Source: Bacteroidia bacterium (GTDB lineage Bacteria; Bacteroidota; Bacteroidia; UBA4408). From it: DNA of 64,000 bases. Location of the stretch: NCBI GenBank assembly GCA_043778625.1, contig JAYWFU010000052.1, forward strand, positions 1,197 through 65,196, written 5' to 3'. Below, piece after piece: positions 32,344-60,466 of the stretch. The notes under the pieces were generated by a model. It did not search any database, was not told where the DNA came from, and saw only the letters and a list, made by a program, of their open reading frames with translations. Positions within the stretch are counted from its first letter, which is position 1. Each line of letters starts with the position of its first letter. A program made the position numbers and the translations under genes.

Positions 32344-32447
32344 GCCGTAAACAGAGTAATTAAGCCGCAAACACACCTATGTTCATTATTAATTAAAAAA
32401 ATAATGAAATTAATTATAAAAATAGTTGGGTAAAATTTATTAATAAC

Positions 32448-32455
32448 TATATTTG
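32448..32455 (+). promoter_or_regulatory. Candidate Bacteroidetes sigma-A -7 box (TAnnTTTG) upstream of rpmE
   Basis: 'TATATTTG' ~33 nt upstream of the rpmE ATG with a TTG-containing element ~20 nt further upstream. By-eye match to the Bacteroidetes promoter consensus. Confidence 0.35.
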
Positions 32456-32487
32456 CAGTCAATAATAAAAAATAGAACTAAAAAATT

Positions 32488-32754
32488 ATGAAAAAAGAAA
32501 TTCACCCAGAAAGTTACCGTTTGGTAGTATTTAAAGATATGTCAGCTGACTACTCATTTATAACAAAATCATGTATTGATACAAAAGATACTGTTAAATG
32601 GGAAGATGGTAACGAATATCCATTAGTAAAATTAGAAATTTCTAATCAAAGTCATCCGTTTTATACTGGTAAAACTAAAATATTAGACATAGCTGGTCGT
32701 ATTGATAAATTTAATGCACGAGCATCTAAAAAAGCAACTACTACTACTAAGTAA
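32488..32754 (+). CDS. rpmE: 50S ribosomal protein L31 type B (zinc-independent paralogue)
   Basis: 88 aa. '[10 protein letters not shown]', 'HPFYTGK'. Lacks the CxxC zinc ribbon, which indicates type B. Confidence 0.9.
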
Positions 32755-32804
32755 TTATAATTTTCTTGTTAGTTGAGAAATCTATAATCGTTTACAAACT
32801 ATTA

Positions 32805-32834
32805 AGACATATACTCTGCGTATATGTCTTTTTT
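32805..32834 (+). terminator. Rho-independent terminator after rpmE
   Basis: agacatata / tatatgtct stem, 7-nt loop, then TTTTT. Confidence 0.6.
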
Positions 32835-32887
32835 AGTTTTGGCAAATAGTACACTACAAACTCACTATACTTTATTCCACTTTTACT

Positions 32888-34604: not shown

Positions 34605-36356
34605 ATGTACAGAACTCATACCTGCGGACAACTTACTATTGCAAATGCTAATGAAACAGTAACACTTAGTGGCTGGCTACAACGTAGCCGAGACCTTGGC
34701 GGAATGACGTTTATTGACCTCCGCGACCGTTACGGAATTACGCAACTTGCTTTTAACATGGAAACTAATGCACAATTGTGTGAAGCTGCCCGAAAGCTTG
34801 GACGTGAGTACGTGCTGCAGATTACAGGTACTGTAAAAGAGCGTGAAAGCAAAAATGCAAAAATACTTACGGGCGATATTGAGTTAATAGTAACGGAATT
34901 AAAAGTATTAAACCAATCGGCTACACCACCCTTTACCATTGACGATGCTACCGATGGTGGCGACGAACTGCGTATGAAATATCGCTACTTAGATTTGCGC
35001 CGTAATGCAGTGCGTAAAAACTTAGAGCTGCGCCACCGCATGGCTATTGAAACTCGTAACTATTTAGATAAATTAAGTTTTTTGGAAGTAGAAACTCCTG
35101 TACTTATAAAATCAACGCCCGAAGGCGCCCGCGATTTTGTAGTGCCAAGCCGTATGAATCAAGGCGAGTTTTATGCCTTGCCACAAAGCCCACAAACGTT
35201 TAAGCAACTACTTATGGTGGGTGGTTTTGATAGGTATTACCAAATTGTAAAATGCTTTAGAGACGAGGATTTGCGTGCCGACCGCCAACCCGAGTTTACT
35301 CAAATAGATTGCGAAATGTGTTTTGTGGAGCAGGAAGATATTTTAAACACATTTGAAGGCTTGATTAAACATTTATTTAAAACTGTTAAAGGTATTGATA
35401 TACCTACGCTTACCCGCATGACCTTTGCCAATGCTATGAAATACTATGGTAACGACAAACCCGATATTCGTTTTGATATGAAGTTTGTATACCTCAAAGG
35501 CGAAGGCACAGACCTTACGTCGGGTAAGGACTTTAAGGTATTTGATGATGCCGAAAACGTAATTGCAATTAACGCAGTAGGGGCAGCTAATTATACCCGC
35601 AAGCAAATTGACGAACTTACCGAACGGGTAAAACGCCCGCAAATAGGGGCTACAGGGCTAGTGTATGCACGTGTAACCGACCAAGGAGTTAAATCAAGCG
35701 TAGACAAGTTTTATGATACCGATACCCTACAACACTGGGCTACTGCCACCAATGCTCAAGACGGCGACTTACTACTGATACTTGCAGGCACACTACATAA
35801 AACCCGCAAAGCCATGGCAGAACTGCGCTTAGAGATGGGCACACGCCTAGGTTTACGTAACCCTGATACGTTTGCAGCGCACTGGGTAGTGGATTTTCCG
35901 ATGTTAGAATGGGACGAAGAAACTAGCCGTTATCACGCTATGCACCACCCGTTTACAAGCCCTAAACTAGAGGATATTCACTTATTAAACAGCAACGCTG
36001 GTGCGGCACGTGCCAATGCGTATGATATGGTAATAAACGGAGTAGAAGTAGGTGGAGGCTCAATACGCATACACGACGCTGCATTGCAAGCACAAGTGTT
36101 TGGTTTACTTGGTTTTACTAAAGAGCAAGCCGAGTATCAATTTGGATTTTTGATGAATGCCTTTAAATACGGCGCACCACCACACGGCGGTATTGCTTTT
36201 GGTTTTGATAGATTATGCTCATTATTTGGCGGTAGCGAAACTATACGTGATTATATTGCTTTTCCTAAAAACAATTCAGGGCGAGATATTATGATAGACG
36301 CACCAAGTCTAATAAGCCCAGAGCAAATGACTGAGTTGGGTATAGCGAGTAAATAA
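34605..36356 (+). CDS. aspS: Aspartate--tRNA ligase
   Basis: 583 aa. 'RTHTCGQL', 'FIDLRDRYG', class II motifs '[18 protein letters not shown]', 'GGGSIRIHD', '[14 protein letters not shown]'. Confidence 0.95.
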
Positions 36357-36370
36357 TTAAAGAAAATAAC

Positions 36371-36424
36371 ACAACAAATTCGGCCTTGCTTTGTGTTATC
36401 ACAAAGCAAGGCCGAATTTGTTGT
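36371..36424. terminator. Bidirectional terminator: perfect 25-bp inverted repeat with 4-nt loop between convergent aspS and AI-2E transporter genes
   Basis: acaacaaattcggccttgctttgtg-ttat-cacaaagcaaggccgaatttgttgt. A/T-rich on both flanks. Confidence 0.7.
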
Positions 36425-36463
36425 TTACTATTAATTGTTGTAACCACTATTAAATTACACTAA

Positions 36464-37558
36464 TTATTTATAGTGTTTTTTTAATTTTATTTTAGCTACT
36501 GTAGTAGTTGGCAAGGTATCGCCCAGTAATAACCCCCATGGTTTTAAAGAGGGTACATGCTCGCATATTACTTTAATGATAGCAGTAAGTGGTATGGATA
36601 AAAACATACCCGCTACACCCCACAAAGCACTTCCACAAAGCACTACTATGATAGCTGCCAAAGCATTAATTTTTACTTTAGAGGCTACTATCTTAGGCGA
36701 AATATAATGATTATCAATAAACTGAATTACAACATATACCAATAGCACTAATACAAAATAAGTGCTAGTAGATTTGGTAGTGATAGCCACAATAGCAGGT
36801 AATGCCACCGCTACTATTCCACCAATGTAAGGGATAACATTTAACAATGCACCTATTATTCCAAGTATTATAGCGTAATCAATACCAATAATTAATAAGC
36901 CTACTGAATTAAGAATAGCAATAATAAAGGCTTCGATTAATAAGCCAAGTAAGTATTTTTGAATAATTAATTTCGTTTTTGTTAATACTTGATTAACAGC
37001 TACTAAGTGATTAGCACCAAACAGTTGACGAATAAAGTCGAGTAATAATGGTTTGTAATACAAAAACATAACTACGTATACCGGTATTAATGCTAATACA
37101 AACATACCATGCCCCATTGAGGATACCGCAGCACCAATATATGATTTACCCGTATTAATTATTGCAATTTTAGCATCAGCTAAGAGTACATTAATTTTAA
37201 TAGTACTAATGTTAAAATAAGTTGATGCCCAAGTAACAGAAAGTTTGCCAGCCTCATAAAATTTATCAACTAATAATGGATAAGTTTCTGACAACATACT
37301 TAACTGCGATGAAATAAAAATTAGTAGTGCCATTGTAAGCAGCAATACGATGCTAATTGCAAGTACAATGGCTACTGTATGATTAGTTTTTTTTGCTACT
37401 AAAAAATTAACAATAGGATTAAGTGCTATGGCAATAATTACAGAATATACTATTGGTAAAATAATAGCTTGCACCATGTAAAGCATAGTTACTAAAGCTA
37501 ATACCCCTATAAAAATTAACGCTAATTTACTAGAGATGCGAGTGGTAGTATTGGTCAT
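36464..37558 (-). CDS. AI-2E family transporter (UPF0118/PerM-like)
   Basis: 364 aa, 8 TM helices. Conserved C-terminal 'GMFLSIPLTAIIKVICEH' region. Confidence 0.75.
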   Translation of the reverse strand: MTNTTTRISSKLALIFIGVLALVTMLYMVQAIILPIVYSVIIAIALNPIVNFLVAKKTNHTVAIVLAISIVLLLTMALLIFISSQLSMLSETYPLLVDKFYEAGKLSVTWASTYFNISTIKINVLLADAKIAIINTGKSYIGAAVSSMGHGMFVLALIPVYVVMFLYYKPLLLDFIRQLFGANHLVAVNQVLTKTKLIIQKYLLGLLIEAFIIAILNSVGLLIIGIDYAIILGIIGALLNVIPYIGGIVAVALPAIVAITTKSTSTYFVLVLLVYVVIQFIDNHYISPKIVASKVKINALAAIIVVLCGSALWGVAGMFLSIPLTAIIKVICEHVPSLKPWGLLLGDTLPTTTVAKIKLKKHYK

Positions 37559-38465: not shown

Positions 38466-38510
38466 GGTTTTGCTAATTAATGGGATAATATAATTTTTTG
38501 GGTAATTGAA

Positions 38511-38789
38511 TTAACTCAATTGAGTTTTTATGTCATTAGTTACGTCGTGCATTGTTTGCTTGCCTTTGGCATACATATCAGTAGCTTCGGTATTAGCCGC
38601 TTTAAATTTTTGCGTAAATTGGGTTATTATATCTTCCAATTTTTCTTTTAATTCATCGGTAGAGTCATTGGCTTTAGTAGCTAATTTTTTGCGAGTTTCC
38701 GAGCCTTTATCTGGAGCAAATAATATTCCTAATAATGCTCCTGCGGCTGCCCCAGCCAATACTCCTATTAATACATTTGATTTGTTCAT
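38511..38789 (-). CDS. YtxH domain protein
   Basis: 92 aa. 'GVLAGAAAGALLGILFAPDKGSETRKKL' matches the YtxH N-terminus. Confidence 0.7.
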   Translation of the reverse strand: MNKSNVLIGVLAGAAAGALLGILFAPDKGSETRKKLATKANDSTDELKEKLEDIITQFTQKFKAANTEATDMYAKGKQTMHDVTNDIKTQLS

Positions 38790-38838
38790 GATTTCTATTT
38801 TTTTAAGGTTAAGTTTATAAATGATTGCTTGATTAAAT

Positions 38839-38994
38839 TTAGAGGATTTTACGTCCTTGTATTACTCTTAATATTACCGATATAAGTGCAATTACAAGCA
38901 GCACATGTATTAACCCTCCTAGGTTGTAGCCAATAAAGCCTATTGCCCAGCCAATAATTAATAGTATTGCCAAAGTATAGAGTAAGTTTCCCAT
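38839..38994 (-). CDS. lmo0937-family small membrane protein (not in ORF track, <60 aa)
   Basis: Hand translation: MGNLLYTLAILLIIGWAIGFIGYNLGGLIHVLLVIALISVILRVIQGRKIL. Matches the ~50-aa lmo0937 family ('LLIIGWAIGF'). Confidence 0.5.
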   Translation of the reverse strand: MGNLLYTLAILLIIGWAIGFIGYNLGGLIHVLLVIALISVILRVIQGRKIL

Positions 38995-39017
38995 AATAAC
39001 AGTGTGTTTGTATTATT

Positions 39018-40772: not shown

Positions 40773-40818
40773 AGTTTTAATTTTTTGTTAAATTGGTAAT
40801 ACGTTACTTGTTAAGTGT

Positions 40819-41007
40819 TTATAAGGCAGCTATTATTGAGTGTAACTCCTCTTTTGTTTTTCCTAATTTCACTTGCAATCTTCCTATCATTTCGTCTTGC
40901 TTGCCTTCAATTAGTAATACATCGCTATCTGTTAATAATGCAAATTGTTGTTTTAACTTGCCTTTTGTTTCATTCCAATTTCCTTTTAATTCGGTTAAAT
41001 TTTTCAT
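40819..41007 (-). CDS. CsbD-family general stress protein
   Basis: 62 aa. '[39 protein letters not shown]' is a typical CsbD sequence. Confidence 0.75.
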
Positions 41008-41206
41008 ATTATCTAATTTTAGTTTGTGTTATTATTACACTACAAATGTGCGTCTATCAAAGGTTAAAAGTGTTACACAAGTTATACTATAAGTTATATC
41101 ATTCACACATTGCATTATTAGTTAATTGATATGCTAATTAAGTAACAAACCTTTTAAGGTGTTGATTTCATTACGTTTTAACACCTATCAAGCACTAAAA
41201 TAAGCG

Positions 41207-41239
41207 CAAAAAAAAGCATCGTACTTAATGTACGATGCT
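41207..41239 (-). terminator. Rho-independent terminator downstream of the HK/RR operon (minus strand)
   Basis: agcatcgtac / gtacgatgct 10-bp stem, 5-nt loop. Run of A on the plus strand gives a T-run on the minus strand. Confidence 0.6.
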
Positions 41240-41267
41240 TAATTAAAAGAAAATAAGAGGCTTAAAA

Positions 41268-53283: not shown

Positions 53284-54999
53284 TTATTTCTTTTTAGTAT
53301 TGCTTTTTTTATCTTTGTTTTCAATACTTGCCACAGGCTTCAACAAACTACTGTATTTATCTTTGTCATTCAATACTTCAATTGCGTTGGCAACATCAGT
53401 ATCGTGTGCTAATGTGTTTTGCGTGCGCCCTTTTTGGTAGTAATAGCGTGCCACAATTTCACTTTCTAACAAGCGTTTTACCTCGACTTTAAAGGTTTCT
53501 AAATCCTCTACTTTGTTATGTGTTAATTTAATTTTTAATGCATCGTACTCGGCTTGCGCACGGTCAAAATATTTTTCATTTTCGGCACTTTCTTTTAAGT
53601 CTTTTAATAATTTTTCGCTTTTGGTAGTATAGTCATATTCTTTGGATGCTGCGTATTCGCAAAACTCTTTATAGTCTGCATCAGTTAACGCAAACTCTTT
53701 GGCTGATGCTATTGTAGCGTGCTTTAAGCGATAGGTAGTTGCATAGTCAAACAACACACTTTTATTAGCAAGGCTAGTTGCAATTTTACTATATACTTTG
53801 GGTGTAGTTTTAATATCGGGCAATACTCCTCCACCATCGTACACGGTACGCCCACTTTTGGTTTTAAAGGGTTTCATTAAGCTGTCGGGTACTTTACCCA
53901 CACTACCATCTTCGTTACGGTTGGTATAGTCCAAGGCTTGTATGCAACGTCCGCTTGGTATATAATATTTAGCAATAGTAATTTTAAGCTGTGCGTTATA
54001 GCTTAGCTTACGAGTATTTTGCACTAATCCTTTACCAAATGTACGTTGCCCAATAATTACGCCTCTATCCAAATCCTGTATAGCGCCTGATACAATTTCG
54101 CTGGCTGATGCTGAGCCACTACTCACTAACACTGCTATTGGTACTGATTGATCCAACGGAGTATTAATTGTTTTGTACGTTTTTTCATTTTCTTTTACTT
54201 TACCACGTGTTACTACTACTTCCTGTCCTTTATCCACAAATGTATTTACAATATTTACGGCTTCGTTCAGTAGCCCACCAGGGTTACCACGTAGGTCAAG
54301 TACTATGCCTTTAAGATTGTCGTTCTTTTTTAAATCAATTACAGCCTCTTTAATTTCGCCCGAAGCATTTTCGGTAAATCCGCTCAAGGCAATGTAGCCA
54401 ATAGTTTCGTTAAGCATACCGTGGTAGGGTACGTTTTTAATTTTAATTTCTTCGCGTGTAATTTTCTTTTCCAAGTTTTTAGTTTCTCCTTCGCGCTCTA
54501 TCATAAGCGTAACCGTAGTACCTGGCGCACCTTTGAGGAGTTTACTTACATCATCACTTTTTTTGCCTTTCATTGATTTACCATCAATTTCAATAATTTT
54601 ATCGCCAGCACGTAAGTCAGCTTTAAAAGCAGGATAGTTTTCATAAGGGTCGGCTATAATTACGTAACCATTGTTGGTACGAATAGTTGATCCCACGCCT
54701 CCATATTGCCCAGTGGTCATAAAACGATAGTCCTCCACATCGGATTCTGGAATATAGTTGGTGTAAGGGTCTAACGACTCCAGCATTTCGTCAATGCCTT
54801 TTTTAATCATTTGCCCAGGCTTAGTTTCGTCCACGTAATACATATTTACTTCGCGAAACAGGCTTGCAAAAATATCGAGATTTTTAGCTATTTCAAAGTA
54901 AGCTTCGTCAGGTTTATTAAGTGCTAGTAACGATACAGAACCCGCTAATACTAGCGATGTAACTACTTTGCGTTTATGATTTTTGAATATTGATAGCAT
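53284..54999 (-). CDS. ctpA: S41 family carboxyl-terminal processing protease (PDZ + S41)
   Basis: 571 aa. PDZ 'GDKIIEIDGKSMKG'. S41 catalytic 'VLVSSGSASASEI' and 'TFGKG'. Confidence 0.9.
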   Translation of the reverse strand: MLSIFKNHKRKVVTSLVLAGSVSLLALNKPDEAYFEIAKNLDIFASLFREVNMYYVDETKPGQMIKKGIDEMLESLDPYTNYIPESDVEDYRFMTTGQYGGVGSTIRTNNGYVIIADPYENYPAFKADLRAGDKIIEIDGKSMKGKKSDDVSKLLKGAPGTTVTLMIEREGETKNLEKKITREEIKIKNVPYHGMLNETIGYIALSGFTENASGEIKEAVIDLKKNDNLKGIVLDLRGNPGGLLNEAVNIVNTFVDKGQEVVVTRGKVKENEKTYKTINTPLDQSVPIAVLVSSGSASASEIVSGAIQDLDRGVIIGQRTFGKGLVQNTRKLSYNAQLKITIAKYYIPSGRCIQALDYTNRNEDGSVGKVPDSLMKPFKTKSGRTVYDGGGVLPDIKTTPKVYSKIATSLANKSVLFDYATTYRLKHATIASAKEFALTDADYKEFCEYAASKEYDYTTKSEKLLKDLKESAENEKYFDRAQAEYDALKIKLTHNKVEDLETFKVEVKRLLESEIVARYYYQKGRTQNTLAHDTDVANAIEVLNDKDKYSSLLKPVASIENKDKKSNTKKK

Positions 55000-55560
55000 A
55001 GTGCAATTATTTTAATTATAATGTAATGTGAGCGTATTTAAAATACGCTATTAATTTCATATCAAATGTAGAAAAAATAGTTGGATAGTTGTAATTAGTA
55101 ATCAATAGCGTGCTAATCGATTAAAAATAAAAAAATAAGAGAACGTATTTAAGTAGGTAGTTTACAATTTAAGAATATTCACAACTGTATATTTACACTT
55201 AAAATTTTATCTTTCGTATAAATAGTAGCAACGCGTTGGGGCTACACTAATTGGTAACCCCAACAAACAAATAATATAAAACTTAAGTAATATAACTGCA
55301 GGCTTGCCTAAATTTTGTGTTAGTTAAAATTGGAGTAAACGGATTGTTTGATTTAGCAAAAGTAAGCCCTTGGATTTTTGCGGTAGAAAGTGTATAATTG
55401 TGTACATGCAACATAAGCAGTAACACTACGAGCCCGCAATTGCACATTTAATTTTGCTAAACACATAAGCCTAGGCTTAACAAAACCAAAAGAGCTAAAT
55501 TTTGCCCCTGTACCACAACCAAAAGTTGTAAATTATAAAGAGTAAAACAACAACAAACAC

Positions 55561-58500
55561 ATGACTTTAGACCAGTACATTCAAAACATAAACCAACGCT
55601 ATAAGTTAGGAAACGCCACAGAACATACTTTTCGTGGCGATTTGCAACAACTGCTCGAAAGTGTAGTGCCCGAAATTAGAGCAACCAACGAACCCAAAAG
55701 ACAAACCTGTGGCGCACCCGACTATATTCTTACCAAAAAAGAAATTCCTGTAGGTTTTATTGAAGCAAAAGATATTGGCGACAAAGACCTTGAGGGACTA
55801 AAAAAAACAGGAAACAAAGAACAGTTTGACCGTTATAAGGCCTCGTTGCACAACCTAATATTTACTGACTATTTAGACTTTCATTTATACATTGACGGAG
55901 TATTTGTAACTAAAATTGCAATTGCTCAACTACACAACGGAACCATTGTTCCGTTGCCTAACAACTTTGCTGCATTTACAAACCTTATCAAAGACTTTTG
56001 TGGTTATATTGGGCAAACGATAAAAAGCTCGAAAAAACTGGCAGAAATGATGGCGGGCAAAGCACGCTTACTTTCTGATGTTATTGAACAAGCGTTAACA
56101 AGTGATGAAGTTAAAAACGAAAACAGCACGCTTAAAGACCAAATGAACGCCTTCAAGCAACTACTTATTCACGACATTACCCCCAAAGGCTTTGCCGACG
56201 TGTATGCCCAAACCATTGCTTACGGTATGTTTGCGGCGCGCTTGCACGACCCTACTTTACCTACTTTTAGCCGACAGGAAGCTGCCGAGTTAATTCCAAA
56301 ATCAAACCCATTTTTGCGCAAACTGTTTGGCTACATTGCAGGCCCCGATATCGACGACCGTATAAAGTGGATAGTAGATAGCTTGGTGGAAATATTTTTG
56401 GCGTGCAATGTAGCCGAGATTTTAAAAAACTACGGAAAAACAACAAAAATGGAAGACCCAATCATCCATTTTTACGAAACTTTTTTGAGTGAATACGACC
56501 CTAAGCTCCGTAAGGCACGCGGTGTGTGGTACACGCCTGCACCCGTTGTAAACTTTATTGTGCGAGCGGTGGATGATATTTTAAAAACAGAATTTGATTT
56601 GCCCAACGGACTTGCCGATAATAGCAAAATAAAAATACTAGTAGATGTACAAGGCAAAAAAACTGAACAAGAAGTACACAAAGTACAACTACTTGACCCT
56701 GCCACAGGTACAGGAACTTTTTTGGCGGAAGTGGTAAAACACATTCACAAAAAATTTGAAGGCCAGCAAGGCATTTGGAGCAAGTATGTAGAAACCCATT
56801 TATTGCCTCGCCTCAATGGCTTTGAGTTGCTAATGGCAAGTTACGCAATGGCACATTTGCAATTAGATTTACTACTTACCGAAACAGGCTACAAGCCAAC
56901 AACCGACCAACGACTTAGAGTGTATCTAACCAATAGTTTGGAAGAAAGCCACCCCGATACCGGTACCCTGTTTGCCAACTGGCTAAGTACCGAAGCCAAC
57001 GAAGCCAACCATATTAAACGCGACACGCCCGTAATGTGTATTATTGGTAATCCGCCTTATGCCGTAAGTAGCACAAATAAAAATGAGTGGATTCAAAGCC
57101 TAATTGCAGATTATAAAAAAGACTTGAATGAACGTAAAATAAATTTAGATGATGATTATATAAAATTTATACGCTATGGACAGCACTTTATTGATAAGAA
57201 TGGAAGTGGCATTTTAGCATACATTTCAAACAACAGTTTTATTGATGGTATTACACATCGTCAGATGCGCAAAAATCTATTAGAAAGCTTTGATAAAATT
57301 TATGTTCTCGATTTGCACGGTAGTGCTAAAAAGAAAGAAACTTGCCCTGATGGTAGCACCGACCAAAACGTTTTTGACATAATGCAAGGCGTAAGTATAA
57401 ATTTATTTGTAAAAACAGGCAAGAAAAAACCTAACGAACTAGGTAAAGTACTACACTATAGCCTGCAAGGCATGCGGGAGATTAAATACGACTTTTTAAC
57501 CCGCAACACATTACAAACACTTCCTTGGCAACAACTACAATATATTCAACCCAATTATTTTTTTGCACCTAAAAATTTTGATGGTGCAGTTGATTATGAA
57601 AAAGGATTTAAAGTAGATGAATTGTTTGAAATAAATTCAAACGGAATAGAAACACATAAAGATGAACTAACAATTCAAGATAGTCTACAAAAAATTAACG
57701 TAATAAAAAAAGATTTTGAGAATCTTACCGAAGACGAAATAAAATTAAAATTTCTTATTTCAAAAGAAGGTAGGGATTGGAAAGTTGTGACAGCTAAAAA
57801 TGATATTATAAAAAATAATCCACTTGTATCAAAAATCTTGTATCGCCCTTTTGATGAGCGTTATACTTTATATACAGGTACTACAAAAGGTTTTTTTGCG
57901 TGGCCTAGAAATAACGTAATGAAGGAATTTGTTGGGAAAGATAATATAGGGTTTTGTGCTAAAAGACAAAACATTCATTCCTTTTCATACGTTTTTTTGG
58001 TAAATAAAATTACAGAGTCTTGTGTATTTGAAAGTGCATTTGCAAAAACTAATATTTTCCCTCTTTACCTTTACTCTGATACGAGTGGTCAGTTAGGGTT
58101 ACAGGAAAGTAGTGAGAGAACGTCAAACCTAAACACCGAAATTATAAAACAAATTGCAGAGAAATTGGGTTTAACTTTTACGAATGAAAAAGAAACAACC
58201 AAAGGCACATTTGCACCCATTGACATTTTAGACTATATATATGCAGTATTGCACAGCCCAACGTACCGCTCAACCTACAAAGAGTTTTTAAAAATAGATT
58301 TTCCTAGAGTACCCCATCCTAAAGACAAAGAAACGTTTTGGCAATTAGTAAAACTGGGCGGAGCAATACGACAACTACATTTATTAGAAACCCCAATAGT
58401 TGAAAAATATATTACCCAATATCCAATAGATGGCAACAATGTAGTTGGTAAACCAAAATACCAAGACGGTAAAGTGTACATTAACGACACCCAGTATTTT

Positions 58501-58686
58501 GCCAACGTGCCGCAAGTGGCTTGGGAGTTTTATATTGGAGGATATCAACCCGCCCAAAAGTGGCTCAAAGACCGCAAAGAGCGCACGCTTGAATTTGACG
58601 ATATATTACATTATCAAAAAATAATAGTAGCACTTTATGAAACGAATAGGCTAATGAAAGAAATTGATAAGATTGAGATTAACTAA
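55561..58686 (+). CDS. Type IIG/IIL-like single-chain restriction-modification enzyme (N-terminal PD-(D/E)xK nuclease, gamma-class N6-adenine methyltransferase, C-terminal target-recognition region)
   Basis: 1041 aa. N-terminal 'GAPDYILTKK...GFIEAKD' fits PD…(D/E)xK. AdoMet motif I region 'LDPATGTGTFL'. Motif IV 'IGNPPYAVSS' (NPPY). ~350-aa C-terminal domain. No companion genes. Confidence 0.7.
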   Translation: MTLDQYIQNINQRYKLGNATEHTFRGDLQQLLESVVPEIRATNEPKRQTCGAPDYILTKKEIPVGFIEAKDIGDKDLEGLKKTGNKEQFDRYKASLHNLIFTDYLDFHLYIDGVFVTKIAIAQLHNGTIVPLPNNFAAFTNLIKDFCGYIGQTIKSSKKLAEMMAGKARLLSDVIEQALTSDEVKNENSTLKDQMNAFKQLLIHDITPKGFADVYAQTIAYGMFAARLHDPTLPTFSRQEAAELIPKSNPFLRKLFGYIAGPDIDDRIKWIVDSLVEIFLACNVAEILKNYGKTTKMEDPIIHFYETFLSEYDPKLRKARGVWYTPAPVVNFIVRAVDDILKTEFDLPNGLADNSKIKILVDVQGKKTEQEVHKVQLLDPATGTGTFLAEVVKHIHKKFEGQQGIWSKYVETHLLPRLNGFELLMASYAMAHLQLDLLLTETGYKPTTDQRLRVYLTNSLEESHPDTGTLFANWLSTEANEANHIKRDTPVMCIIGNPPYAVSSTNKNEWIQSLIADYKKDLNERKINLDDDYIKFIRYGQHFIDKNGSGILAYISNNSFIDGITHRQMRKNLLESFDKIYVLDLHGSAKKKETCPDGSTDQNVFDIMQGVSINLFVKTGKKKPNELGKVLHYSLQGMREIKYDFLTRNTLQTLPWQQLQYIQPNYFFAPKNFDGAVDYEKGFKVDELFEINSNGIETHKDELTIQDSLQKINVIKKDFENLTEDEIKLKFLISKEGRDWKVVTAKNDIIKNNPLVSKILYRPFDERYTLYTGTTKGFFAWPRNNVMKEFVGKDNIGFCAKRQNIHSFSYVFLVNKITESCVFESAFAKTNIFPLYLYSDTSGQLGLQESSERTSNLNTEIIKQIAEKLGLTFTNEKETTKGTFAPIDILDYIYAVLHSPTYRSTYKEFLKIDFPRVPHPKDKETFWQLVKLGGAIRQLHLLETPIVEKYITQYPIDGNNVVGKPKYQDGKVYINDTQYFANVPQVAWEFYIGGYQPAQKWLKDRKERTLEFDDILHYQKIIVALYETNRLMKEIDKIEIN

Positions 58687-59194
58687 CAGTATAAAATTAA
58701 ACACAAAATGATTAGAAAATTAAACGAACACCATATTACATAATTACTTAGGCTTAAAAAGACTAGTATAGGTTACCAACTAATTGAAACAAAAAGCATA
58801 ATTATTATTGTGTATTATACCTTATTTCGTGAGGATGCGAACTAAGGCGGAATGTGTTATTTTTAAATACAAATTATTTTATAATAAAGCCGTGTAATCC
58901 TCTTTTATTTCATCCCAACAAATAACAACATTACTATATTTGTGCTTAATGATAAACAACGACCCGACTTCAGATGCTATATAGCGGGTTCTTTTTTGAA
59001 ATCAGATGTGACAGCTCTAAATTAGGAGTAAAATTATTACTTTTATGCTAACGAAAATTCGTTTAGGACACTACTAATTAGTAATTTTAATGGCCTATAA
59101 AACCACTAATTTAATAGTTGATTTTGGGGTGTATTTATATAAAGAATAATTTATTAACATTACACCGAGTGTTAATCAAAAAAAAAATCAAGCC

Positions 59195-60466
59195 ATGAAT
59201 TTACTTTTAACTAAAGCCACTATTATAGATAAAAAAAGTGCGTATCATTTGCAACAAATGGACATACATATTGTTGATGGAAGGATTATAAATATTGAAA
59301 AAAAAATTGCTAACACTACTAACGCTACTGTAATTAGTGCTAATAATTTACATGTATCTAACGGTTGGATAGATTTGAATTGTAATGTAAAAGAGCCTGG
59401 TTTTGAACACAAAGAAACGTTAGAAAGTGTTTGTGCCGCTGCTGCTCAAGGTGGTTTTACCAGTATTGTTGCCATGCCTACCACCCAGCCAATTACTGAT
59501 AGTAAAAGTAATATTGCCTACATAATTAATGCCACACAACATAGCGCAGTTAACGTATTGCCCGTAGGAGCTATTACGCAGCAATGCCAAGGCAAACACT
59601 TAGCCGAATTATACGACATGCAACTAGCAGGAGCCATAGCATTTAGCGACGGTAAACGTACAATAGCTGATGCAGGGCTTGTTAGTAGAGCAATGCAATA
59701 CGTACAGCCATTTAATGGCAAATTATTTTTGCATAGCGATGATAAAAATATTTCGCTAAAAGCGCAAGCCAACGAGGGCACAGTAGCCACCACTATAGGC
59801 TTAAAAGGTGCACCAGCATTGGCTGAACATATTATGGTACAACGCAATATTATGTTAGCAGAGTATACTAATACAACTATGCACTTAAGTAATATATCAA
59901 GTGCTAAATCAATAACATTAATTAACGATGCTCGTGCCAAAGGAGTAGCAATTACTTGTGATGTAGCGGCACACTACTTGTTGTTAGACGATAGTACTTT
60001 AACAGCATTTAACAGTAATTACAAATTTTATCCGCCCCTACGCAATTCCAATAATAAGCAAGCACTTATAGTTGCATTGGCTACTAAAGCTATTACTGCA
60101 ATAACTAGCGACCATACCCCTGAGCCTACTGAGGAAAAAGACGTAGAATTTGAAAATGCGGCTTATGGTATAATAGGATTAGAAACCGCTTTTGCAGTGG
60201 CTCGCACCGCTACACATAGTACAGTACCAATTGAAGACTTAATACATACATTAACCTATGGCCCAGCACAAGTATTAGGTATACCCATTACACCTATAGC
60301 TGTAAATGAATTAGCTTGTATTACCTTATTTGACACTAGTATAGAGTGGACATTTGAAACGCAACACATACGCTCACTAAGTAACAACACTCCGTTCATA
60401 AACACACTATTTACAGGTAAAGCATTGGGAATAATAAATAAAAATAAATACATGAAAAGCAACTAA
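59195..60466 (+). CDS. Dihydroorotase-like amidohydrolase with substituted metal-binding histidines (likely non-catalytic PyrC'-type)
   Basis: 423 aa. Aligns to the DHOase signature 'D-[LV]-H-V-H-[LF]-R-E-P-G' as 'IDLNCNVKEPG' (both His→Asn). 'SDHTPEP' replaces 'SDHAPH'. Confidence 0.75.
   Translation: MNLLLTKATIIDKKSAYHLQQMDIHIVDGRIINIEKKIANTTNATVISANNLHVSNGWIDLNCNVKEPGFEHKETLESVCAAAAQGGFTSIVAMPTTQPITDSKSNIAYIINATQHSAVNVLPVGAITQQCQGKHLAELYDMQLAGAIAFSDGKRTIADAGLVSRAMQYVQPFNGKLFLHSDDKNISLKAQANEGTVATTIGLKGAPALAEHIMVQRNIMLAEYTNTTMHLSNISSAKSITLINDARAKGVAITCDVAAHYLLLDDSTLTAFNSNYKFYPPLRNSNNKQALIVALATKAITAITSDHTPEPTEEKDVEFENAAYGIIGLETAFAVARTATHSTVPIEDLIHTLTYGPAQVLGIPITPIAVNELACITLFDTSIEWTFETQHIRSLSNNTPFINTLFTGKALGIINKNKYMKSN

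Follow-up and report, generated by a model that had tools for sequence, protein, structure and literature searches.

Among the described enzymes closest to the protein considered here, DrdV of Deinococcus wulumuqiensis (Type IIL; PDB 7lo5 and 7lvv) recognizes a site that is asymmetric, where it methylates a single adenine, on one of the strands, and cleaves 10 and 8 bp downstream (10.1101/2021.01.06.425610). Its nuclease domain acts in trans, on DNA bound by a different subunit at its own site, and breaking both strands takes a trimer or tetramer of enzyme–DNA complexes, an assembly with which methylation competes kinetically (10.1101/2021.01.06.425610). The Type ISP enzymes LlaBIII and LlaGI (~1570 aa) differ in that a superfamily 2 (SF2) helicase-translocase and a coupler separate their nuclease from their methyltransferase, and they cut after ATP-driven collision. 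The MmeI family (Type IIL; PDB 5hr4) and Eco57I (Type IIG) likewise place a nuclease, a methyltransferase and a target recognition domain (TRD) on a single chain. Here, we compare these systems with a restriction-modification (RM) gene in a 64-kb stretch of DNA from a Bacteroidia bacterium, part of the 95.7-kb metagenome contig k141_270776 (ENA ERZ27314321), the whole of which we call the window. The gene is an intact open reading frame (ORF) of 1041 aa with an ATG start at 55561–58686 (+), and we assign it to the DrdV-like Type IIL enzymes, a subtype of Type IIG. Very probably, it is an intact DrdV-type single-chain RM enzyme that came from a mobile unit and now persists as a stranded, ameliorated cassette gene between housekeeping genes. 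Related loci and proteins are referred to by L and P numbers, respectively.

Architecture and family of the protein

By sequence comparison, the protein reads as a DrdV-like Type IIL enzyme whose methyltransferase and TRD are related to their counterparts in Type ISP enzymes. A family profile built from 48 full-length relatives (mean identity 40%) matches DrdV (7lo5) with E 4.8e-95, the main domain reaching E 4e-90 over profile positions 285–1009 and DrdV residues 271–980, and it matches two Type ISP enzymes with E 3.1e-80 (LlaBIII) and E 1e-73. With the window sequence alone, the PDB matches are LlaBIII, which is the best, DrdV (E 2.5e-30) and LlaGI. DrdV and the window protein are also alike in length (1029 versus 1041 aa), share one domain order (PD-ExK nuclease, helical connector, gamma-class N6-methyladenine methyltransferase, TRD) and both lack a helicase. 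They differ in that similarity is remote across the methyltransferase and TRD, while the nuclease domains barely align (domain E 0.32). An AlphaFold2 model, made from 60 close relatives and thus from too shallow an alignment, has a mean predicted local distance difference test score (pLDDT) of 57.7, falling below 50 over residues 61–324, with the TRD alone well modelled; its top Foldseek matches are again LlaBIII, DrdV and LlaGI (E ~1e-28), the next group (BrxX and CamA) is weaker by nineteen orders of magnitude, and the top 50 do not include MmeI.

An initial annotation of this DNA had described a single polypeptide with an N-terminal PD-(D/E)xK nuclease, a gamma-class N6-adenine methyltransferase and a C-terminal TRD, and this description is borne out in position and content. 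The PADLOC REase_MTase_IIG model matches the full length from residue 2 with 1161 bits. The nuclease domain (residues ~1–135, 55561–55965 (+), boundary approximate) is delimited by the profile alignment to DrdV residues 6–129 and by a weak HSDR_N-type Pfam signal at residues 51–113 (E 0.011). It is followed by a putative helical connector (residues ~136–300, 55966–56460 (+), boundary approximate), which is predicted to be all-helical at low confidence and is positioned as in DrdV. The methyltransferase domain (residues ~301–640, 56461–57480 (+)) carries Pfam matches to N6_Mtase, Eco57I (E 1e-10) and MmeI_Mtase (residues 367–576, E 5e-9) within residues ~300–585, and its motifs run in the order motif X (YTP, residues ~324–326), motif I (DPATGTGTF, residues 379–387, 56695–56721 (+)) and motif IV (NPPY, residues 497–500, 57049–57060 (+)), with the TRD coming after. 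The strongest Pfam match of the whole protein is Type_ISP_C at residues 687–1033 (E 1.4e-81), and this C-terminal region divides into a variable TRD core (residues 641–860, 57481–58140 (+)), which has low identity to relatives, and a conserved C-terminal part of Type_ISP_C (residues 861–1041, 58141–58683 (+)), which is 85% identical in close relatives.

The nuclease active site is placed by the PD...ExK motif PDYILTKKEIPVGFIEAKD (P53–D71, 55717–55773 (+)), identified from the translation and from conservation in the 48 relatives. Among these, no variation is seen at E21, P53, E68, K70, D379, G383 and NPPY (497–500), D54 recurs in at least 90%, and the window gene, which is intact, retains all family-invariant residues; the catalytic residues have thus not been lost on alignment. 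In the weak N-terminal alignment to DrdV, which is nonetheless in register, E21, D54, E68 and K70 pair with E25, D64, E79 and K81. In DrdV, D64 and E79 are metal ligands, mutation of K81, the lysine of PD-ExK, abolishes catalysis, and the active site also includes E25 (10.1101/2021.01.06.425610).

Comparison with the other known systems is largely negative. Like the Type ISP enzymes, the window protein has a methyltransferase and Type_ISP_C TRD module, which is homologous to theirs, yet it is much shorter (1041 aa versus 1406–1578 aa for the LlaGI and LlaBIII chains), and no helicase, ResIII or ISP_coupler domain is found in it with Pfam (E <= 0.1). The lack of a helicase sets it apart from true Type ISP enzymes. 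The initial annotation had likened the layout to those of MmeI and Eco57I, and the single-chain order does agree; membership in the MmeI family does not hold, as the Pfam Eco57I and MmeI_Mtase matches cover the catalytic methyltransferase core alone, the MmeI-specific N-terminal nuclease, spacer and TRD have no match in the protein, and no MmeI chain occurs among the PDB sequence matches. The protein is therefore not an MmeI-family member. Nor do hidden Markov models (HMMs) assign it to the methyltransferases of the BREX or MADS systems, its scores being far under the cut-offs for NCBIfam BREX-6 PglX (10.9 bits, cut-off 900) and MAD2 (25.5 bits, cut-off 720), and its neighbours are housekeeping genes.

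The family to which the protein belongs is very large. An exhaustive profile-free search yields at least 150 full-length relatives, mostly ~1040 aa long and 39–67% identical, and 3906 clusters (at 50% identity) with E < 1e-30. A word-indexed search yields more than 8000 relatives, the best 120 of which are all 73–81% identical over the full length and come from Flavobacterium, Empedobacter, Moheibacter, Alkaliflexus, Bacteroidales and many metagenomes. Full-length homologs occur on 48 plasmid records, across phyla, and none was found among 50,697 phage records.

Within this family, identity is distributed as a mosaic. In close relatives, residues 1–640 and 881–1041 are 81–96% identical to the window protein (by domain, 86% in the nuclease, 92% in the connector and 85% in the C-terminal part), whereas residues 641–860, the TRD core, reach only 32–46% in the same comparison; this core is 31–49% identical in the 119 closest relatives and at most 49% identical in all 270 sampled. 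A search with the TRD alone gave a best match of 51%; its output comprised short proteins only and lacked the window protein itself, so that it was not exhaustive. The TRD core probably sets the recognition sequence, and the pattern is that expected of a fixed frame that would swap or rapidly diversify its specificity core. Given the low identity of this core relative to the conserved frame, its specificity is unsampled: the gene is one more member of a known family, and the recognition sequence of the window copy is not readable from any relative. We also observe two variants of this C-terminal region. In P0061 and P0064 (1218–1222 aa; L085:3533–7201 and L086:3062–6730), a DUF559 domain (Vsr-like endonuclease, PF04480) is inserted within the Type_ISP_C TRD, while P0274, P0275 and P0276 are stand-alone Type_ISP_C-only proteins of 330–400 aa on long contigs, which may be split genes or separate specificity subunits.

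Flanks of the gene and their counterparts in related loci

Local blastn comparison of related loci brings out a conserved non-coding stretch upstream of the RM gene; an earlier global alignment of the window flanks with those of Alkaliflexus had given no similarity, having missed a short hairpin that blastn later recovered. In an alignment of 26 loci, this element, hairpin A, spans ~103 nt and is bordered by GCCAACGC words. It has a 17-bp stem extended by pairing of an A-tract with a U-tract, two conserved A.A mismatches and a variable tip. Of the 17 pairs given by RNAalifold, 10 carry compensatory changes; in the 25 loci besides the window, the stem is 94% paired, and the observed covariation is reached by none of 500 shuffles. 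A covariance model built here (R1) places hairpin A directly 5′ of the RM gene in ~35 of 87 related loci, with further copies in these loci that invariably share the strand of the gene, and has no match in 1.1 Mb of control Bacteroidota loci. Relative to the ORFs of related loci, the hairpin starts at or overlaps the stop of a unit's last ORF and lies 20–45 nt before the next start.

The window retains a degraded copy of hairpin A at 55414–55517 (+), scoring 59.5 bits with R1 (E 1e-14), in which ~7 of the 17 stem pairs are broken. Within its degraded 5′ arm, a change has given rise to the octamer TAATTTTG (55449–55456 (+)), 104 nt ahead of the ATG, which is a perfect match to TAnnTTTG. We take this pattern, from the Bacteroides and Flavobacterium promoter literature, to be the Bacteroidota −7 box, and TAATTTTG is thus a candidate promoter element by pattern match only. 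Two further structures occur in the window. A short hairpin at 55236–55265 (GTTGGGGC-(14 nt)-GCCCCAAC) has arms like the GTTRRRY/RYYYAAC words of cassette boundaries in the opposite order, and 36355–36436 weakly matches R1 in either orientation, with 18.3 and 15.9 bits (E 0.18 and 0.81), between the convergent genes 34605–36356 (+) and 36464–37558 (−), where it is probably an ordinary bidirectional terminator.

Downstream of the RM gene, related loci very often carry a second gene, either 0–36 nt after the RM gene or overlapping its stop by 4 nt. These second genes are diverse (SIR2-like, PLD-like, HNH, DUF262, truncated MCRA-like and many without a family), and the SIR2, PLD, HNH and DUF262 followers are typical of defence islands. 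One recurrent partner is a 219-aa protein without a Pfam family, whose intact gene lies 18–21 nt after the Type IIL gene in L141, L169, L172 and L173. With an HMM built from 90 members of this 219-aa family, the 64-kb window, translated in all six frames, matches best at 58708–58797 (+), 22 nt after the RM stop; this stretch corresponds to HMM positions 1–30, that is, to the first 30 codons of the partner gene, and is interrupted at codon 12 by an in-frame TAA. Of its 30 residues, 15 agree with the L172 partner, and from the RM stop across to the partner start, the DNA is 77% identical to that of L172. Since this relic sits right after the RM stop, as the intact gene does in relatives, the window once held an RM and partner pair of which only the first 30 codons of the partner survive. 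The initial annotation had held that such an enzyme needs no partner genes, which is true of DrdV; relatives of the window gene, however, often have a tightly coupled downstream gene, and the window copy once had one.

Several features of these downstream regions are worth recording in their own right. The module that follows Type IIL genes (L169:6001–7055; L172:6001–7079; L173:2698–3776; L141 downstream of 7741) comprises the 219-aa protein, an overlapping ~70-aa ORF that shares its N-terminal ‘ETGMGYQ/H’ motif, and a 46-aa Pro/Lys-rich ORF. In five loci, a truncated MCRA (oleate hydratase-like) ORF overlaps the RM stop by 4 nt and covers profile positions 96–495 of 495 behind a novel 25-aa N-terminus; such ORFs lie at L087:9135–10502, L095:3402–4796, L115:4760–6154 and L124:4531–5901. 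Finally, L172:1–9078 has the look of a stacked defence island, with two tandem Type IIL genes (66% and 71% identity with the window protein) ahead of a Type I HsdM gene.

In related loci, a second element, element B, lies between hairpin A and the next unit. It is 133–136 nt long, starts with ..YAAC-A and ends with ..CC-GTTRRRY, and although its sequence varies, a 12-pair stem is kept, with compensatory changes at 12 of 12 pairs. A model of element B built here (R2) finds ~70 copies in the 0.82 Mb of RM loci at E < 0.01, including 4 copies in the Alkaliflexus imshenetskii genome, and one match in 1.1 Mb of control loci. Almost every copy in the RM loci lies on the strand of the gene, and a locus holds as many as six of them within 9 kb. 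The gene units between elements vary by locus, same-strand ORFs are parted by AAC...GTT imperfect palindromes, and upstream of the RM gene, GTTGGGC is the exact point at which similarity among loci sets in. Integron cassettes begin at a GTTRRRY-type boundary. Same-strand arrays with R2 elements, often together with R1 elements, are seen at L168:50–8842, L112:3349–12747, L142:624–9891, L002:13284–20822 and L093:867–7234, and their cargo includes Type IIL RM genes and other defence-type genes, among them a Hachiman-like HamA and helicase pair in Alkaliflexus.

The likeness of these loci to integrons thus extends to same-strand arrays, units of one to several ORFs, AAC...GTT palindromes of uniform length, a GTTRRRY boundary, defence-rich content and, in two loci (L085 and L002), a tyrosine recombinase related to Xer and IntI that divergently adjoins element B. 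At L085:1066–3209 and L002:18526–20596, this recombinase (Phage_int_SAM_4 and Phage_integrase) is co-oriented with an IS91-like Y2 transposase. The differences are that the recombinases of L085, L002 and L151 reach only 153–192 bits against TIGR02249 (cut-off 265), in a match split in two, and match the archaeal XerA/integron-integrase model about equally well; that the recombinase is paired with the IS91-like transposase; that an extra hairpin A stands beside the elements; and that cassettes often hold two or more genes. We term the arrays integron-like because some details misfit a simple integron model. In the window itself, no attC-like element is left: element B is absent from the whole window with R2 (E <= 1), and unfiltered output for 54800–59400 contains nothing above 10.3 bits.

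Tentatively, we picture the RM family as common cargo of an integron-like and perhaps undescribed cassette system in environmental Bacteroidota, with attC-like sites, an insulator hairpin, a short Xer/IntI-related recombinase and sometimes an IS91-like transposase; the window gene may then be an escaped, domesticated fossil of it, and the enzyme frame (~90% identical across orders) a scaffold for swaps of the TRD core. The alternative for these loci, that A and B are a terminator and a repetitive extragenic palindromic (REP)-like intergenic repeat spread in defence islands and that the arrays are ordinary operons, seems to us doubtful but has to be reckoned with. Hairpin A does resemble a bidirectional intrinsic terminator (A-tract, stem, U-tract), near-identical A+B modules follow unrelated ORFs (L103 and L112), and the best recombinase score stays under the integron-integrase cut-off (192 versus 265 bits). 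On the other hand, element B has the hallmarks of attC sites, namely invariant AAC/GTT ends, a long imperfect palindrome in which pairing is kept, and a fixed length, and its copies follow the gene strand, the units differ by locus and similarity starts exactly at GTTRRRY.

Returning to the cassette origin of the window gene, the ancestral setting would be a same-strand cassette array in which a hairpin precedes the gene, a coupled second gene often follows it, and attC-like elements of 133–136 nt form the bounds. In the window genome, the RM gene alone is intact, the hairpin having lost ~7 of 17 pairs, the partner having been cut to 30 codons and a stop, and no attC-like element remaining. 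Acquisition is supported because the RM gene lies in unrelated neighbourhoods in different genomes, because it is absent beside the S41 peptidase gene, used as an anchor, in 80 related genomes, and because both flanks hold cassette relics. The initial annotation had proposed an acquired defence gene with eroded mobility signatures; the degraded upstream hairpin and the downstream partner relic agree with this, whereas composition gives no sign of recent transfer.

A number of observations weigh against this picture of an active, acquired enzyme. The nearest genomes (S41 peptidase 83–85% identical) have no synteny on this side, only the S41–Wzy pair being kept, so that there is no clean empty-site comparison. 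The GC content of the RM gene is 0.369 against 0.362 +/- 0.039 for the window, and its GC content at third codon positions and its codon usage are typical, from which it follows that the transfer is old and not recent, or that the donor was similar. Among related loci, some identical cassettes diverge ahead of element B (L095 versus L115), and the putative role of element B as a recombination site is read from its form and arrangement. For the protein, the N-terminal alignment to DrdV is statistically weak when taken alone, and pLDDT is below 50 in the nuclease domain, whose PD-(D/E)xK fold is thus a putative one. Lastly, activity, recognition site, cut distance and one-strand methylation are carried over from DrdV, an enzyme ~25–30% identical in the aligned methyltransferase and TRD region.

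Gaps, neighbours and other explanations

The RM gene is separated by 561 bp (55000–55560) from a divergent gene for an S41/PDZ C-terminal processing peptidase (53284–54999 (−)) and by 508 bp (58687–59194) from an amidohydrolase gene of the dihydroorotase type (59195–60466 (+)). Other neighbours encode a tetratricopeptide repeat (TPR) protein, an M23 peptidase, a nucleotidyl transferase, an O-antigen ligase-like protein, a protein sorted by the type IX secretion system (T9SS) and an outer-membrane efflux protein; these are Bacteroidota housekeeping genes. The ORF, both flanks and the three motifs lie where the initial annotation had put them, and its statement that the two gaps are the longest in the window needs correction. 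The largest gaps measure 561, 552, 544, 508 and 495 bp (median 39.5 bp), so the 561-bp gap is the longest by 9 bp only and the 508-bp gap ranks fourth; because three more gaps of 495–552 bp occur in the window (32344–32887, 38466–39017 and 40773–41267), the flanks are not uniquely long.

The same annotation had seen no transfer RNA gene, integrase or direct repeats. No tRNA gene is found in the whole window (in L160, a tRNA gene at 18–91, scoring 69 bits, lies ~190 nt 5′ of the RM start). A tblastn search with one integrase and its IS91-like partner, which was not exhaustive, finds no homolog in the window. As for repeats, a single imperfect 20-mer flanks the gene, at 55083 and 59066; with 16 of 20 positions identical in AT-rich DNA, we take it as a chance match and do not consider it a mark of mobility.

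The solitary position of the gene invites the question of whether the enzyme still restricts. An orphan methyltransferase serving epigenetic regulation, with its nuclease silenced in some way invisible in the sequence, would fit a lone gene among housekeeping genes that has an ameliorated composition and has lost both its cassette context and its partner. We regard this as improbable, since the nuclease domain retains its full catalytic set and shares 86% identity with close relatives, and since a hypervariable TRD core fits arms-race specificity, not a fixed regulatory motif.

It is likewise improbable, and somewhat more so, that the long flanks are functional and control the RM gene through a regulatory RNA, for instance an antisense RNA, or through a small gene, for instance one for a controller protein. 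The gaps do exceed the median by more than tenfold, and a conserved structured element stands upstream in relatives, but the window copy of that hairpin is broken. Both gaps fold no better than shuffled sequence (z 0.03 each) and have no Rfam match (gathering threshold; E <= 1), and neither contains an ORF above 54 aa or, the 30-codon relic excepted, one with homologs. Outside 55414–55517 and 58654–58797, they share nothing with the 87 related loci. The remaining upstream gap (55000–55413) thus includes ~310 bp without any match, together with a candidate −7 box of the divergent S41 peptidase gene, TACATTTG (55070–55063 (−), pattern match), and in the remaining downstream gap (58798–59194), no coding remnant, structured RNA or attC-like element is detected.

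A truncated or degenerate Type ISP enzyme that has lost its helicase-translocase, does not restrict and is at most a methyltransferase is very improbable, for although Type_ISP_C and LlaBIII are the best Pfam and single-sequence PDB matches and the labels “type ISP restriction/modification enzyme” and “predicted helicase” are used for the relatives by NCBI and JGI, the protein contains neither a helicase nor an ISP_coupler domain, the 1040-aa architecture is itself that of a vast conserved family, the conservation of the nuclease residues is unexpected of an idle nuclease, and DrdV, likewise helicase-less, is an active endonuclease (10.1101/2021.01.06.425610).

Mode of action and significance

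Because the architecture and the active-site residues are shared, the logic of DrdV most likely applies to the window enzyme. The C-terminal TRD would recognize a short asymmetric site, and the gamma-class methyltransferase would flip and methylate one adenine, on a single strand only, marking host DNA. The PD-ExK nuclease would miss the DNA of its own subunit and cut that of a second site-bound molecule at a fixed short distance, so that double-strand cleavage would require the assembly of three or four enzyme–site complexes. Such an assembly would occur on unmodified phage DNA with multiple sites, while lone unmodified sites in the host would be methylated first. The CATGNAC site and the 10/8 cut of DrdV are not transferable to the window enzyme, because the TRD core is unrelated in detail.

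For enzyme hunters, the window gene is a candidate new Type IIL specificity; it is not surprising in itself. Its flanks, seemingly empty, are readable as the decayed hairpin of a cassette and the remains of a dead partner gene, and illustrate how a chromosome comes to hold a stranded defence gene. Of greater interest are the relatives beyond the window, which point to defence-rich integron-like arrays in Bacteroidota. Sedentary chromosomal integrons store defence genes (10.1101/2024.07.02.601686), and integrons are reported to be rare in complete Bacteroidetes genomes (10.1101/2022.02.28.482270), although they have been detected within the phylum. If the arrays described here are recombination-active, the idea of integrons as defence biobanks would extend beyond Proteobacteria.

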